From Candidatus Heimdallarchaeota archaeon (GTDB taxonomy: Archaea; Asgardarchaeota; Heimdallarchaeia; Heimdallarchaeales; Heimdallarchaeaceae), in NCBI GenBank assembly GCA_021399345.1, contig JAAFKI010000112.1:155557-219556 (forward strand): DNA of 64,000 bases, written 5' to 3'. Made by a program: the position numbers and the translations under genes. How positions within the stretch are numbered: position 1 is the first letter of the stretch; the number at the start of each line of letters is the position of its first letter. The notes below the pieces were generated by a model. The model ran no database searches. It was not told the origin of the DNA and was given only the letters and a program-made list of their open reading frames with translations. Positions 31,991 to 46,110 of this stretch are shown here, piece after piece.

Positions 31991-32671
31991 TTAGCCATAA
32001 TTCCCAGTTAAAGGTACAAATGCAACTCCACCCATTTTTTTCTCCGAATATTTGTCTTCAGATTCTCTTTTTATTATAACCAGTTCTTGGTAAAATGTTC
32101 TTCCAAGAGGTAAAACGAGAATCCCACCTACTTTCAGCTGCTCTAACAAAGGAGGAGGTACTCTTTTACTAGCCGCTGCAACAGAAATAATATCATAAGG
32201 AGCTTCTTCGAGATAACCCAAACCACCGTCTGATTGAATAATTGTTACAAGATCAGAATAACCTGTTGTTTCAATGTTTTTCTTAGCAAACTCAGCAAGT
32301 TCAGGAATTATCTCACTAGCATAAACATGACCAGGATTAGAAGAACTTTGCGGAGCAACCATTTCTGCGAACATTGCAGCATTATATCCACTTCCAGCCC
32401 CAACTTCAAGGATTTTATCTCCAATTTTTGGATCAGTACATTTAGGAGAAATATAAATCATAACCATGTGGATTGCGCTAATTGTTTGCCCTGATAGAAT
32501 AGGTAGGGGTGTGTCCACGTAAGCTCTGTTTCTATGTTTCTCTAATACAAATTCTTCCCGAGGAACATTCATGAAAGCATCTATCATCCCATTTGTGAGA
32601 GAAATATCGTGAAAACGAAGTTTAGAAAGAACCTTTTTCTTCTCTTCGATTATGTTTTCATCAACTGTCAT
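31991..32671 (-). CDS. pcm: Protein-L-isoaspartate O-methyltransferase
   Basis: VPREEF, AYVDTPLPI..GQTISAIHM, LEVGAGSGYNAA, DGGLG..APYD, VAFVPL; likely start ATG 32671. Confidence 0.95.
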   Translation of the reverse strand: MTVDENIIEEKKKVLSKLRFHDISLTNGMIDAFMNVPREEFVLEKHRNRAYVDTPLPILSGQTISAIHMVMIYISPKCTDPKIGDKILEVGAGSGYNAAMFAEMVAPQSSSNPGHVYASEIIPELAEFAKKNIETTGYSDLVTIIQSDGGLGYLEEAPYDIISVAAASKRVPPPLLEQLKVGGILVLPLGRTFYQELVIIKRESEDKYSEKKMGGVAFVPLTGNYG

Positions 32672-32905
32672 TAGAAACAACATGTGCAATGATTCGACTA
32701 ATTTATAGAAATTTTTGACCTTAATGTATATTTTGGTGAATTGTTTTTTAACATTTAACAAACTATAAGAACTAACCAGAAAAACATTTCTTGATACTGA
32801 AAACTATCATAAGTTTTTAAAAATGATTCATAATATGTATATAATAGAATTAATATCTTTAAAGAAGATTAATTAAATTGGTACCGAATTAAAGGAGAAT
32901 ATCGA

Positions 32906-33205
32906 ATGATATCACAAAAACAATTTGAAGAGACTTTAAAATCCTTAGAGTCGCATCCGGGAGTAAGAGGAGTAATAATCACTAGTAATGATGGACTGCC
33001 AATTTCTAGCACACAAAATCTTAGCATGGAAATGAGAGAAAATGTGTCAGCTCTAGTTGCATCACTTGTAGGTAGGGCAAAGGCAGTTGTTACTGAGCTG
33101 AATGAAGGAGAATTGAATTTCTTCACCCTAGATACAAGTCACGGAGAAATTTTAGTTGCTCCTGAAAATGATTATGTTCTAATTGTATTGAGAGAAAAAA
33201 GTTAA
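32906..33205 (+). CDS. Roadblock/LC7 protein (dynein light chain roadblock-like; MglB position)
   Basis: [26 protein letters not shown]...[14 protein letters not shown]. Confidence 0.93.
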
Positions 33206-33252
33206 GAAGGCCTTAAACACGGAGACATTATTGGAAAGTTGATGAGGAAAAG

Positions 33253-33819
33253 ATGAGAAAAGACGCATCAGGAAAAATGCATTTTAAGTTGGTCTTTGTA
33301 GGACCTAGCTTAGCTGGCAAGACTACACTACTGAAGAAACTTCACACCGATGTTACAGGGATAAAGAAGGGGGGACTGAATAGCATAGAAGATCCATCAG
33401 GAAGAACTATCTATTTTGATTTCAGTCCTTTTATGGCAACATCTTCAGTGATACTAGACATATACACAGTAGCAGGACAAAGAAGACATAGACATCAAAG
33501 GTCTCTAGTGTTAAAGGGAGTGGATGGATTGCTATTTGTAGCAGACTCATCCCGAGCAATGTTAGCGGATAATGTAGAATCTGCTGAGGAACTGAAAAAT
33601 GAACTAGGAGATAAAATTGGTACAGAAACGCCCATTGTTATTGCACTGAACAAGAGAGATGCCCCTGATGCAATGCCAAAAAAAGAATTGGTAGATGCTC
33701 TTAATTTGGGAGCAAATATACCTGTTTATGAAACAATAGCTATTGAAGGTATTGGAGTAAAAAGAGCATTTCAATCTCTATCTAGAGAAGTTCTTCTCAA
33801 AAAATTATACGCGGTTTAA
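33253..33819 (+). CDS. mglA: MglA-family small GTPase
   Basis: GPSLAGKTT, RTIYFDF, YTVAGQ, LKGVDGLLFVADS, NKRD; directly follows a roadblock gene. Confidence 0.88.
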   Translation: MRKDASGKMHFKLVFVGPSLAGKTTLLKKLHTDVTGIKKGGLNSIEDPSGRTIYFDFSPFMATSSVILDIYTVAGQRRHRHQRSLVLKGVDGLLFVADSSRAMLADNVESAEELKNELGDKIGTETPIVIALNKRDAPDAMPKKELVDALNLGANIPVYETIAIEGIGVKRAFQSLSREVLLKKLYAV

Positions 33820-33845: not shown

Positions 33846-34562
33846 TTATTGTTTACCTGGCAACAAGAGGATATGATCAATGTTTGAGGTTTCATCTTGG
33901 TCAATAATGAAACGCACTGCTTTTGCAACATCTTCAACCGCTAACATTTTGGTTCTATCAACTTCTTTTCCATCAAACCAAGGGGTGTCAACTGAACCAG
34001 GGTTAATAGTAGCTGCTTTTACTCTAGTACCCTTTAGTTCATCTCTTAAACACCAAACCATAGCTTGTACAGCATGTTTAGTTCCAGCATAAAGACTACA
34101 TCTAGCACCCGTTTTCATACCTAAATTGGATGAAGTTACAATTACATGACCGCTATTTTGTTCTTTTAATAGTGGTAATACTTTGTTAATCCAAAGGAAA
34201 ACTCCTCGAACATTTGTATTAAATTGAGCATCATATTGCTTAATTGTTAAATCTTCTAAATTGCCAAAGTAACCAACACCAGCATTAGCAAAAAGAACAT
34301 CTACACCACCTAACTTCTTTTTTACATCTTGAAAATGACTTTCTACATCTGCTTCAACACCTACATCACCTACACCATAATGTGCATCACACCCTAGTGA
34401 GTTTAACTTACTACATATTTGTTGAAGTCTTTCTTCATTACGACCAGTTAAATAAAAACGGTGACCACTTTTTGCCATTTCTAATGCTGCGGCCCCACCA
34501 ATACCGCTAGAACCTCCGGTGATAATTACACGTAATGATTTTTGCTCTTTAGTGTCATTCAT
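33846..34562 (-). CDS. Short-chain dehydrogenase/reductase
   Basis: TGGSSGIG, ANAG, YAGTK, NPGSVDT. Confidence 0.95.
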   Translation of the reverse strand: MNDTKEQKSLRVIITGGSSGIGGAAALEMAKSGHRFYLTGRNEERLQQICSKLNSLGCDAHYGVGDVGVEADVESHFQDVKKKLGGVDVLFANAGVGYFGNLEDLTIKQYDAQFNTNVRGVFLWINKVLPLLKEQNSGHVIVTSSNLGMKTGARCSLYAGTKHAVQAMVWCLRDELKGTRVKAATINPGSVDTPWFDGKEVDRTKMLAVEDVAKAVRFIIDQDETSNIDHILLLPGKQ

Positions 34563-42281: not shown

Positions 42282-43496
42282 ATGTCCCAAGAATTAACTT
42301 TAGAAAAAGCCTTTGAATGGTTTAATAGTCGAGTATCTTCATCTTTTTCTAGTTACAGAAATAGTGCATCAAAACAAATTAGATCTATTAACGATAAAGT
42401 TGAGGAATTAAAAAGTTCTGCACATCGTTTTGATTACTCTGATATAAAGGATCCTGATGTTTACCAAAATTATGCTACAACGATTTATATCAAAACCAAC
42501 GAGTTATTTGACGATTTAGAAATTCCTGAAAACATCACTTATAATAACCTTGAGAATTTTGCAACTGTTACAAAAAATAAAGTAAATTCGTACTTGAGTT
42601 TTCTTTCAAAGTACTTATCTTGGTTGAAAAGAGATAGATCTTACAAAGATAAAGTCAAAAGCTTGGATAGAACTCTTACAAGACTTAAAGAAGAAATACA
42701 TCATTTTGAATCAAAAACTATGGTAAACTATTCAGAGATTATTCCAAAAGAGAAGGTGCTAGATGACATTGAAAATCTTACTCATTTAGTACAAAGGGAC
42801 AATGAACTCGAAGAAGAAATAATCTCACATGCAAATGAAGTAGAGAAGTTAACTAAGGAAATTGACAAGCAAAAGGAAAAACTAAATGAATTGAAAAATC
42901 ATCCAGGTTTCATCCAAAGAGAAAATAACTTAAAGGAACTAGAACACATAGAAATTTCAATTTCCAATAAAGTTTCTGAAATTAAAAAACTCTGCAATAA
43001 GGTGCTTAGAGCATCAGATAATAAGAAAATAAGCTTGGATAATTATGATAAAGATATAATGAAGGGTTTGATAAAAGATCCTTTAAGTCTTTTCATTAAA
43101 GAATCAGAAGGATATCGAGGAATTAAAGCAGCTCTTCAGACTCTAAAAGAAATAAGCCTTGACCCTTCAATTCAGATGAAGAAAGAAAAACTTCAAAGAG
43201 CATTTGATAATATTGATGAAATAGTTAATAATGAGCTGTTAGAAAATCAGAAGAGAGCTCAATTCATTATAAAACAAAATGAAGCTATAAATCACAAATT
43301 TGAAGATATGCAGCTTTTTGTTAAAATAAAGAAATTTGAACAAGAAATTGATAATCTTACAATTGATAGAAACCGGATAACTCTCTCACTTAGAAGAGAA
43401 AAAGAAGAAATTGATGATAAAATTGCATCTATTTCTAAATCTATTGAGGAGAGAATCGTTGAATTCACTGGTAAGGAAATGAAACTGGTATTCTAA
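42282..43496 (+). CDS. Long coiled-coil protein of unknown function
   Basis: E/K-rich heptads across most of the 404 aa; no Walker motifs. Confidence 0.8.
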   Translation: MSQELTLEKAFEWFNSRVSSSFSSYRNSASKQIRSINDKVEELKSSAHRFDYSDIKDPDVYQNYATTIYIKTNELFDDLEIPENITYNNLENFATVTKNKVNSYLSFLSKYLSWLKRDRSYKDKVKSLDRTLTRLKEEIHHFESKTMVNYSEIIPKEKVLDDIENLTHLVQRDNELEEEIISHANEVEKLTKEIDKQKEKLNELKNHPGFIQRENNLKELEHIEISISNKVSEIKKLCNKVLRASDNKKISLDNYDKDIMKGLIKDPLSLFIKESEGYRGIKAALQTLKEISLDPSIQMKKEKLQRAFDNIDEIVNNELLENQKRAQFIIKQNEAINHKFEDMQLFVKIKKFEQEIDNLTIDRNRITLSLRREKEEIDDKIASISKSIEERIVEFTGKEMKLVF

Positions 43497-43788: not shown

Positions 43789-44178
43789 ATGGCTTTTGGA
43801 ATAACATTCGAAAATAAAACAAATGAATTAAAGACTACATTAAGTGATCTGAAAATTAAAGTTCCTGAAATTGAGAGCGCAGCAATTGTATCTATTGAAG
43901 GATTACCTATAGCTTCAGTGCTACCACAGGAAATTGAAGAAGCACGTTTAGCTGCAATGACTGCCGCAATGCTTTCCCTAGGGGAAAGGGTAGCTCAAGA
44001 GATGCAAAGGGGAGAATTAGAAAAAATTTTCATTGAAGGTGCTTACGGATACATTATTACTTTAGCTGCAGGACAAAATGCTGTTTTAACTGTTTCAGCT
44101 AGAAAGGAAGCAAAATTAGGTTTAGTTTTTCTGGATATGGCTAGAGCAGCTCAAGAAGTTGAACGACAACTTAATTGA
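43789..44178 (+). CDS. Roadblock/LC7 (MglB-like) protein
   Basis: IESAAIVSIEGLPIAS, AAMTAAMLSLGER, IEGAYG, AKLGLVFLDM. Confidence 0.95.
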   Translation: MAFGITFENKTNELKTTLSDLKIKVPEIESAAIVSIEGLPIASVLPQEIEEARLAAMTAAMLSLGERVAQEMQRGELEKIFIEGAYGYIITLAAGQNAVLTVSARKEAKLGLVFLDMARAAQEVERQLN

Positions 44179-44303: not shown

Positions 44304-45212
44304 ATGGGAGAATTAACTGATGAACAATTTGCAGGCGATGAATTAGTAGTAAAGCTAGGTAAATTAGAGGAAAACATTACTGTTCTTAAGAATCAAAGAA
44401 ACGAATATAACCAGCTCACAAAAGATTCTCTTGGATTAAGAAATGAAATTAATGAAGAGATTCATCAATTATTAGAAAAAGCTAAAGAATTTACAGTTAA
44501 ACGTGATGATTTAAACACTCAAGTTAAACAATTAAAGCTAACACGAAAAGAATTGTATGAAGGTTTACAAGTTAATAAGAAGGCTCTAGAGGAAATTGTA
44601 GAGAAAGAGAAACTCCTAGAAAAAGGGGACATTCAAAAAAAACGAAGAAGTATGAGCAATCTTAGCAGCAAGATAGACAAATTGGAATGGGATTTGCAAA
44701 CAAGTGTTCTGAAACCTGAAGAAGAGAAAGAGATGATTCAGATTTTGGAAAAACTCTCTGAAAATCTAAATAGATTAGCAGAAGAAGTTCATATCACAAC
44801 CCATCAAACCGAATTATGGAGAAAAATTTCATCCTCCCAAAAACAAATCAATCAACTACATTCTCAAATAGTTGATTATGCAAAAGAATCCCAAATTTAT
44901 CACAATCTAATGAATCAACAGTTTCAACAAGTTAATGCTTTAAGAAAAAAAGCAAATGACTATCATAAGGATTTCTTGAAAAACAAGAAAAAAGCAGATA
45001 ATTATCATAAAGATTTTCTTTCAAAGGTTACAGAAAAAAATGAGCTGAAGAAGCAACTAAAGGAAGCTCAAAACGATCACAGAAGAAAGATTAGAGAGAG
45101 AATCAAATCCAATATACAAGAAAGTGTTGATAAAGCATTCAAGAAATATGAAAATGGAAAAAATCTATCTCTTGATGAGTTTAGATTGTTAGTAGAAAAT
45201 GGAATGATTTGA
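44304..45212 (+). CDS. Archaeal coiled-coil protein (COG1340-like)
   Basis: RNE.N / RDDLN repeats, LEWDLQTSVL.PEEEK, AD.YH, C-terminal GKNLSLDEF. Confidence 0.85.
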   Translation: MGELTDEQFAGDELVVKLGKLEENITVLKNQRNEYNQLTKDSLGLRNEINEEIHQLLEKAKEFTVKRDDLNTQVKQLKLTRKELYEGLQVNKKALEEIVEKEKLLEKGDIQKKRRSMSNLSSKIDKLEWDLQTSVLKPEEEKEMIQILEKLSENLNRLAEEVHITTHQTELWRKISSSQKQINQLHSQIVDYAKESQIYHNLMNQQFQQVNALRKKANDYHKDFLKNKKKADNYHKDFLSKVTEKNELKKQLKEAQNDHRRKIRERIKSNIQESVDKAFKKYENGKNLSLDEFRLLVENGMI

Positions 45213-45339: not shown

Positions 45340-46110
45340 ATGCGATTACTGACACCCAAATTCATCTACAAAATATATGCGAAAAGACTTTCTGCTGAAA
45401 TAAAAAACAAACCTATTCCAAAACATATTGGAATTATCTTAGATGGAAATAGAAGAGCTAGTAAAATGATGGGTATTGATTATAAAACAGGTTATGAACT
45501 TGGTGCTGAAAAACTTGAAGAGGTTCTTAATTGGTGCTGGGAATTAGAGGTTGAAGTAATTACCTGTTGGGTATTCTCAACTGAAAATTTTTCACGACCT
45601 AAGAAACAAGTAGAAGCCATTATGAAACTTGCAGTTGAAAACTTGAGAAGAATCAGAGAGGACAAACGTATAGCTACAAATAAAGTAAAAGTAAATGTTT
45701 TAGGAAGATTAAACCTACTACCTAAAAATGTACAGGAAGAGATAAAATTAACAGAAGACGCAACCAAAAATCACGATAAATATGTTCTCAATCTCTGTAT
45801 GGCTTATGGTGGTCGTGCAGAAATTGTGGATGCATTGAAACAGATATTAGATAAAATGAAAGAGGGGAGTATTAGCATTGATGATGTTGATGAAGAATTA
45901 ATTAGTAATCACTTATACACTGACGGTATTTCAGATCCTGATTTAATCATTAGAACTTCGGGAGAAGAAAGATTGTCAGGATTTCTTTTATGGCAATCAG
46001 CATTTTCAGAATATTATTTTGCAGAGGTTAATTGGCCGCTTTTTAGAAAAATAGATTTGTGGAGAGCAATTAGAACATTTCAAAGAAGACAGAGAAGATA
46101 TGGAACTTAA
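45340..46110 (+). CDS. uppS: cis-prenyltransferase (polyprenyl diphosphate synthase)
   Basis: PKHIGIILDGNRR, FSTENFSR, YGGRAEI, DPDLIIRTSGEERLSGFLLWQ, RRYG. Confidence 0.96.
   Translation: MRLLTPKFIYKIYAKRLSAEIKNKPIPKHIGIILDGNRRASKMMGIDYKTGYELGAEKLEEVLNWCWELEVEVITCWVFSTENFSRPKKQVEAIMKLAVENLRRIREDKRIATNKVKVNVLGRLNLLPKNVQEEIKLTEDATKNHDKYVLNLCMAYGGRAEIVDALKQILDKMKEGSISIDDVDEELISNHLYTDGISDPDLIIRTSGEERLSGFLLWQSAFSEYYFAEVNWPLFRKIDLWRAIRTFQRRQRRYGT

Follow-up and report, generated by a model that had tools for sequence, protein, structure and literature searches.

The subject of this analysis is a pair of adjacent genes from a Candidatus Heimdallarchaeota archaeon, encoding a short roadblock protein and a small GTPase of the MglA family. 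The pair lies in a 64,000-nucleotide stretch of contig JAAFKI010000112.1, referred to here as the window, which is part of contig C41 of a metagenome-assembled genome (MAG; 3.27 Mb, 88.6% complete) with close homologues in Candidatus Heimdallarchaeum endolithica or the Heimdallarchaeaceae. A preliminary description of the window had placed the roadblock gene in the mglB position of an mglBA operon. We find that the roadblock protein is of the RBLC7 type, the Asgard counterpart of DYNLRB, the roadblock light chain of eukaryotic dynein, and that its direct pairing with mglA is a trimmed, derived form of an older Asgard cluster carrying four roadblock types (RBup, RBLC7, MglB-like and RBdown), from which the MglB-like gene has moved away. 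The open reading frames (ORFs), called with translation table 11, agree with those listed previously, and the unit is composed as follows.

32833..32897, plus strand: putative promoter and ribosome-binding region of the RBLC7-mglA pair, read from the sequence
32906..33205, plus strand: RBLC7-type, DYNLRB-like roadblock of 99 aa without a C-terminal helix (ORF, Pfam, PDB phmmer, AlphaFold2, Foldseek, trees)
33206..33252, plus strand: RBLC7-mglA spacer of 47 nt (sequence)
33253..33819, plus strand: group-1 MglA small GTPase of 188 aa (ORF, PDB phmmer, motifs in 102 orthologues)

The roadblock protein matches Pfam family Robl_LC7 (PF03259) with an E value of 5.9e-21 and 74.5 bits against a cut-off of 23. 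A phmmer search of the PDB identifies the Odinarchaeota LCB_4 roadblock 7F8F as its best solved relative (E 1.2e-25), followed by approximately twenty eukaryotic dynein roadblock/LC7 chains (E 2e-15 to 1e-7), of which those at 2e-15 to 1e-10 align almost free of gaps; bacterial MglB chains yielded no match at E<=1. The AlphaFold2 model (predicted local distance difference test score, pLDDT, of 91.6) has the topology a1-b1-b2-a2-b3-b4-b5, and the last strand occupies residues 91-97 of 99, as expected from the earlier suggestion that the protein ends directly after it. Both the third helix and the C-terminal helix are absent from the model, which therefore departs from the MglB architecture and has the truncated a-b-b-a-b-b-b fold of DYNLRB and RBLC7, with alignments to 7F8F and DYNLRB that reach the C-terminus. 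The absence of a C-terminal helix is also what defines RBLC7 (Tran et al. 2024, PMC10933270). In Foldseek searches with the model, the Odin structure tops the list and is followed immediately by dynein roadblock chains, and MglB is not among the top 50 matches listed. Searched exhaustively, 1.84 billion cluster representatives yielded only 364 clusters at E<=1e-3, and past the Asgard sequences the named clusters sampled are all eukaryotic dynein light chains (from a rotifer, a copepod, Trypanosoma, Micromonas, Pyramimonas and a nematode). The similarity to DYNLRB1/2 (also LC7 or km23) is thus close, as had been proposed, with 33-43% identity over the full length, almost no gaps, and common motifs including EETLK-L, H-GV-G, dG-PI and EilvAPe-dY-LIV. 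The match to LAMTOR5 is at 26.7 bits against a Pfam cut-off of 27, and at an E value of 0.78 in the PDB compared with ~1e-15 for DYNLRB.

Phylogenetic analysis gives the same affiliation. A quick tree of 178 sequences and 96 columns joins the Asgard RBLC7 proteins and the non-Asgard representatives with a support of 93 in the Shimodaira-Hasegawa-like approximate likelihood ratio test (SH-aLRT) and separates them from the cluster's other three types of roadblock, and 90 representatives form a single clade (SH-aLRT 99) containing every named eukaryotic sequence. In a more careful IQ-TREE analysis of 110 sequences, RBLC7 and the eukaryote-type clade group together with support of 89/89, the eukaryote-type clade itself has 100/99, and the MglB-like proteins form a separate clade (99/95), with the split from RBup/RBdown at 100/99. 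Support is poor (17/66 and 5/0) for where the eukaryotic clade attaches, within the Asgard RBLC7 radiation or next to it. The prediction that the protein would branch with DYNLRB and not with generic MglB is borne out with respect to the archaeal MglB-like proteins; because sequences of bacterial MglB, together with MglC and LAMTOR, were left out of the trees, the contrast with bacterial MglB rests on the PDB sequence, profile and fold searches. Roadblock genes were confirmed in the named control genomes of Thermus, Deinococcus and M. jannaschii. Metagenomic sequences (P0100, P0176, P0079, P0103 and P0127) make up the deepest branches of the eukaryote-type clade, and a metagenome scan for P0100, the deepest of them, returned no matches. 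Any of the five that prove archaeal would be the nearest prokaryotic relatives of DYNLRB.

Among PDB chains the best matches of the GTPase are MglA of T. thermophilus (E 3.4e-31) and MglA of M. xanthus (E 1e-28), with Arf as the next family (6e-10). Its alignment with T. thermophilus MglA has no gaps from the P-loop (G1) through switch I and takes in the G1-G2 segment that is typical of MglA in bacteria. Arf is the best Pfam family for it, and Pfam has no MglA model. Its motifs include the P-loop GPSLAGKT, a switch I of GRTIYFDF that contains an intrinsic arginine, a G3 of YTVAGQ in which threonine replaces aspartate, and a G4 of NKRD; the RTxxFDF arginine finger noted previously is therefore present. 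The switch I arginine is kept in 100 of 102 full-length MglA orthologues and TxxGQ in all 102. An intrinsic arginine in switch I and threonine for aspartate in G3 (TxxGQ) are the features by which group-1 MglA is recognized (Wuichet and Sogaard-Andersen 2014, PMC4316618), and the GTPase belongs to this group, with an arginine finger and catalytic glutamine of its own.

The assignment of the roadblock gene to the mglB position is correct in that the gene is directly upstream of mglA, co-oriented and 47 nt away, but RBLC7 is no stand-in for MglB because a separate MglB-like gene exists. In other lineages a gene of ~155-165 aa lies between RBLC7 and mglA, and as a single sequence its best match is T. 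thermophilus MglB (E 2.6e-9, compared with 0.64 for DYNLRB) in an alignment that is full-length and includes the C-terminal extension. The family is strongly conserved, with a mean column identity of 67% and a conserved C-terminal LKxALxELEK helix, and its profile identifies M. xanthus MglB chains as best among solved structures (E 8.5e-7), with no DYNLRB chain matched; there is also a weak Pfam match to MAPKK1_Int (LAMTOR3). By sequence this gene is the real MglB counterpart. The genome that contains the window has one copy.

Contig C184, 5398..5922: MglB-like gene of the window genome (E 8.7e-39 to the family profile, single copy)

The AlphaFold2 model of its product has the full roadblock core with a third helix (residues 109-131), which a disordered linker joins to a C-terminal helix (153-173), and the top Foldseek matches are the MK-D1 Roadblock3 structure, T. 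thermophilus MglB and M. xanthus MglB. Heimdallarchaeaceae (designated f1) includes two closed genomes, Candidatus Heimdallarchaeum aukensis (CP084166) and Ca. H. endolithica (CP084167), and in the former the MglB-like gene is 565 kb from the RBLC7-MglA pair.

In Heimdallarchaeaceae the MglB-like gene heads a tight co-directional trio (C184, 5398-8201; locus L072), in which it is followed by a gene for a 276-aa protein with a weak KaiC-type ATPase match (25.7 bits, slightly below the cut-off) and one for a 268-aa coiled-coil protein. The trio order is kept in Ca. Heimdallarchaeum aukensis (L073) and is not found in f4 (L074). A Ras/Rab-family GTPase gene converges on the C184 trio; this divergent GTPase was considered as a second MglA and rejected, as it belongs to the Ras/Rab family (PF00071 E 5e-49, with a DxxGQ motif).

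A second roadblock gene in the window, at 43789, had been cited as a contrasting copy with an MglB-type C-terminal helix. It does encode the ordinary third helix of the full roadblock fold, but it is of the RBdown type, and the MglB type with the extra C-terminal helix is the one on C184. We rejected its candidacy as an MglB orthologue since its nearest solved relative is the Thorarchaeota roadblock 7F8M, which also matches the roadblock encoded downstream of mglA in other lineages, its best class hidden Markov model (HMM) is RBdown, and in the tree it groups with RBdown of f3 (support 99/88). It is located with other recognizable parts of the older cluster.

43789..44178, plus strand: RBdown-type full-length roadblock of 129 aa, orthologous to the one behind mglA in the ancestral cluster (Pfam; 7F8M at E 1.9e-24 by PDB phmmer; class HMM 179 bits; tree)
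44304..45212, plus strand: DUF7121 coiled-coil protein of 302 aa, between RBdown and UppS (Pfam PF23435 E 4.8e-23)
45340..46110, plus strand: UppS-like cis-prenyltransferase, with which the ancestral cluster usually ends (PF01255 E 2.6e-76; class HMM 349 bits; same position in other lineages)

RBdown and UppS are adjacent in most other lineages, and the DUF7121 gene is inserted between them in the window lineage. A 404-aa coiled-coil protein with a weak DUF4407 match, encoded at 42282-43496, flanks RBdown on the other side.

Conservation of the locus was examined in representatives of most Asgard families plus 80 named loci, with genes labelled using class HMMs. At E<=1e-8, 352 of 400 Asgard genomes encode RBLC7; among the high-quality genomes 85 of 90 do. 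The arrangements observed are given below, with arrowheads showing gene direction.

Heimdallarchaeaceae (f1; 29 + 27 loci): RBLC7> MglA>, with gaps of ~30-80 nt and one orientation
Sister families f2 and f3: RBLC7> MglA>, co-directional
Family f4: RBLC7 adjoining MglA, divergent
Thor-, Hermod-, Jord-, Frey-, Atabey- and Borrarchaeia, f11, f30 and f32: RBup< RBLC7> MglB-like> MglA> RBdown> (UppS>)
Odinarchaeia and f26: RBup< RBLC7> MglB-like> RBdown>, the cluster minus MglA
Sifarchaeia: RBup< RBLC7> MglB-like>
Family f7 (Heimdallarchaeia): RBLC7> MglB-like<, convergent
Hel- and Loki-type families: RBup or RBdown alone still nearby

Adjacency to MglA, which had been put forward as a feature that should be conserved, is not due to chance: the tight spacing and shared orientation are seen in all 56 Heimdallarchaeaceae loci examined, and the two genes are also neighbors in f2-f4. 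Direct pairing is confined to this one order (f1-f4, Heimdallarchaeales). The order RBup< RBLC7> MglB-like> MglA> RBdown> UppS> is probably ancestral in Asgard archaea. Because this widespread order has the MglB-like gene between RBLC7 and mglA, and that gene is kept elsewhere in the window genome, the direct adjacency is derived. The mglB position of RBLC7 is likewise a secondary state, since clusters centered on the MglB-like gene occur in many classes and RBLC7 adjoins it within Heimdallarchaeia itself (f7). RBLC7 and the MglB-like gene have moreover stayed adjacent in Odin, Sif and f7, whose clusters no longer include MglA. The older cluster is thus split in the window genome: the RBLC7-MglA pair occupies 32.9-33.8 kb, and RBdown-(DUF7121)-UppS follows ~10 kb downstream, at 43.8-46.1 kb; on another Heimdallarchaeaceae contig (L104) the four genes are contiguous, in the order RBdown> UppS> RBLC7> MglA>. 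No RBup orthologue was found in the window genome with the class HMMs.

What might RBLC7 do in such a module? The bacterial MglB GTPase-activating protein (GAP) supplies no catalytic residue and instead positions the arginine and glutamine of MglA itself (Miertzschke 2011, PMC3199381, as described in papers that cite it). The retained MglB-like protein is the best candidate for the GAP role on the Asgard MglA. Odin-RBLC7 is a homodimer in its crystal structure 7F8F and has been proposed to offer a helix-binding site, and DYNLRB and LAMTOR4/5 hold a partner helix in the equivalent groove (Tran et al. 2024, PMC10933270). This groove is open on one side of the RBLC7 dimer because the third helix is absent. 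We therefore propose an accessory role for the RBLC7 roadblock dimer within a conserved MglB/MglA module, in which it would not itself be the GAP, a reading to which we assign a probability of roughly 55%. The relocated MglB-like dimer would remain the GAP platform that positions the arginine and glutamine of MglA, and RBLC7 would be a second roadblock dimer in the same module, whose open groove would bind either the MglB-like dimer or a helix provided in trans. In doing so it may localize or tune the MglA cycle, much as MglC accompanies MglB in Myxococcus or LAMTOR4/5 accompany LAMTOR2/3.

Several observations weigh against this proposal. In the window lineage it is MglA and not the MglB-like gene that remains beside RBLC7. 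The relocated MglB-like protein of the window genome is more diverged, scoring 133 bits to the family profile compared with 220-272 in Loki, Hel and Odin genomes, and its gene now lies in a new operon-like trio, so that it may have acquired other partners. In Loki-type genomes RBLC7 is linked to neither MglB-like nor MglA, and in f5 and f19 it adjoins genes for Rab-like GTPases. In favor of the proposal are the persistence of the RBLC7-MglB-like adjacency in clusters without MglA and the fact that in f24 and f25, which keep MglA, RBLC7 and MglB-like are both weak or absent. Also in its favor, among 41 full clusters, RBLC7 distances correlate with those of MglB-like (r 0.86; partial r 0.69 given MglA), and little with those of MglA given MglB-like (partial r 0.14); this exploratory comparison has no phylogenetic control and is a hint only.

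The divergence and relocation of the MglB-like gene raise the alternative that in Heimdallarchaeales RBLC7 now serves MglA directly as its GAP-type platform in place of the MglB-like protein, which would have been re-used elsewhere. A bare roadblock dimer could in principle suffice, because MglB contributes no catalytic residue; RBLC7 and MglA are adjacent in all four families of the order (co-directional in f1-f3, divergent in f4), and the displaced gene, 565 kb distant in Ca. H. aukensis, has acquired KaiC-like ATPase and coiled-coil neighbors close to a Rab-like GTPase. Yet the MglB-like gene is kept in five of five Heimdallarchaeales genomes examined, with its conserved C-terminal helix, and Heimdallarchaeaceae RBLC7 is not specially diverged, having 55-66% identity to RBLC7 of lineages that still have MglB-like in the cluster. 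We consider such a replacement unlikely.

The distribution of the genes bears on a different alternative, that the adjacency is only a historical remnant and that RBLC7, without a direct part in the MglA cycle, is a scaffold binding helices in general or serves other small GTPases as a partner. At E<=1e-45, 225 of 400 genomes have an MglA orthologue, and none of these is among the 161 genomes of f15-f21, the Loki and Hel types, where a relaxed search finds a more divergent MglA-like gene (41-46% identity). The MglB-like gene is strongly conserved in f15-f21 (E 1e-65 to 1e-80), and the two are dispersed, on other contigs than RBLC7 or far from it; the 352 genomes with RBLC7 include members of these families. 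The Rab-like neighbors, downstream of which RBLC7 lies in tandem in f5 and upstream of two of which it lies in f19, fit this alternative, as does the listing of eukaryotic DYNLRB1 as a Rab6 interactor (PMC10392741). On the other hand, at least six named Asgard classes retain the gene order with MglB-like and MglA, and spacing and orientation hold in 56 of 56 Heimdallarchaeaceae loci; long-term conservation of this kind in prokaryotes usually reflects a functional link. We regard the remnant interpretation as improbable.

Several known systems provide comparisons. The window unit resembles the bacterial MglB-MglA switch of T. thermophilus and M. xanthus in having a bona fide group-1 MglA with a roadblock gene directly upstream, as in mglBA, and differs in that this roadblock is not MglB, whose counterpart is on C184. 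The best functional analogy for an accessory role is M. xanthus MglC, an additional roadblock homodimer alongside MglB and MglA; MglC binds MglB, lacks activity as a GAP, and gives way to MglA-GTP (PMC10329633). RBLC7 differs from it in being truncated and in belonging to the DYNLRB clade, and the two were compared only at the superfamily level. Odin-RBLC7 (7F8F) is a short roadblock of the same family, with ~56% identity in the Foldseek alignment and a root-mean-square deviation of 1.2 Å to the window model, but the Odinarchaeia cluster lacks MglA, whereas the window RBLC7 directly precedes it.

Ragulator combines full (LAMTOR2/3) and truncated (LAMTOR4/5) roadblocks around a small GTPase, as does the ancestral Asgard cluster, although the GTPase is here MglA and not Rag, and no LAMTOR1-like gene was seen. 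A tentative extension, which we think is rather unlikely, is that RBup, RBLC7, the MglB type and RBdown form one Ragulator-like hetero-oligomeric platform around MglA, and that the dynein roadblock descends from its truncated subunit, the groove having first held a helix of the module, such as the tethered C-terminal helix of the MglB type, and later the dynein intermediate chain. We also considered the operon of Liu et al., which combines a LAMTOR1-like roadblock, a Rab-like GTPase and a DENN protein, and regard it as another locus.

The eukaryotic DYNLRB homodimer binds a helix of the dynein intermediate chain. Archaea are not known to have dynein, so the partner of RBLC7 must differ from that of DYNLRB, and no prokaryotic precursor of dynein is known. 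One dynein light chain nonetheless has a clear Asgard counterpart, and it is genomically tied to the MglB/MglA switch in many Asgard classes. The idea in the preliminary description that the ancestor of the dynein roadblock chain regulated a polarity GTPase is plausible, and the cluster offers a concrete, testable idea of what an RBLC7-type protein did before dynein. The advance is specific rather than conceptual, as the broader notion of roadblock proteins as NTPase regulators is an old one, attributed to Koonin and Aravind 2000 where that work is cited (PMC10933270, PMC4316618).

Parts of this picture are already published, namely the RBLC7 protein type and structure (PMC10933270) and the presence of MglA in Asgard archaea, where MglA1 was reported by Vargova et al. 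(preprint) and modelling has been done on an MglA-MglB pair from Thorarchaeota (PMC13408092). The Asgard core genes have been counted to include three families of roadblock proteins and two of GTPases. Tran et al. (PMC10933270) do not discuss the gene neighborhood of Odin-RBLC7; they report that MK-D1 GTPases are generally outside operons with roadblock genes and that sets of GTPases and regulators are hard to predict from Asgard genome layout (Tran et al. 2024). The cluster described here consists of matched sets of a GTPase and candidate regulators, and we found no publication describing either the RBLC7-MglB-MglA-roadblock cluster or its Heimdallarchaeaceae variant, in a literature short of most subscription journals.

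Within the window, the RBLC7-mglA pair has neighbors of unrelated function.

31991..32761, opposite strand to the pair: protein-L-isoaspartate methyltransferase, upstream neighbor
33846..34562, opposite strand to the pair: short-chain dehydrogenase, downstream neighbor

Because these flanking genes are unrelated and on the opposite strand, the pair is an isolated two-gene unit, and with RBLC7 and MglA alone in it the Heimdallarchaeaceae unit is a naturally minimal form of the arrangement, convenient for binding and GTPase assays. Reading the sequence, a TATA-like AT-rich stretch is apparent at ~32833-32846, only ahead of the first gene, RBLC7. A Shine-Dalgarno-like AGGAG (32893-32897) lies 8 nt ahead of the RBLC7 ATG, and a GAGGA (33244-33248) in the spacer lies 4 nt ahead of the MglA ATG; the 47-nt spacer contains neither an AT-rich box nor a T-run. 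An AT box only before RBLC7 and a spacer without box or T-run fit co-transcription without proving it, and the unit is probably bicistronic.

RBLC7 varies in other Asgard lineages. In the sister families f2-f4 (L032, L076 and L077), of the same order, it has 41-47% identity to the window protein, below the 55-66% of other Asgard classes, and a ~5-residue insertion behind the second strand. Family f5, in the same class as the window genome, has two tandem RBLC7 paralogues ~100 nt apart (L075:3137-5193 and L078:4419-6352), each with ~35% identity to the window protein; they are 700-850 nt downstream of a gene for a Rab-like GTPase (WDLAGQ) and unlinked to the MglA orthologue of those genomes. 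In f19 (L044:4001-5584) RBLC7 is followed on the same strand by genes for two Rab/Ras-like GTPases (WDLGGQ and WDIAGQ), which replace MglB-like and MglA.

The window genome, with which MAG AB_125 shares its genus, contains seven PF03259 genes in total. It also contains further MglA-related sequences. A contig-edge fragment on C82 (1-324) corresponds to MglA residues 81-188 at 94% identity to the window MglA, and could reflect a mixture of strains in the MAG or a recent duplication. Two longer MglA-family paralogues, with open frames of ~260 aa, are found 12 kb apart on C169 (33476-34249 and 45905-46696), and have 33-45% identity to the window MglA across its first ~148 residues.

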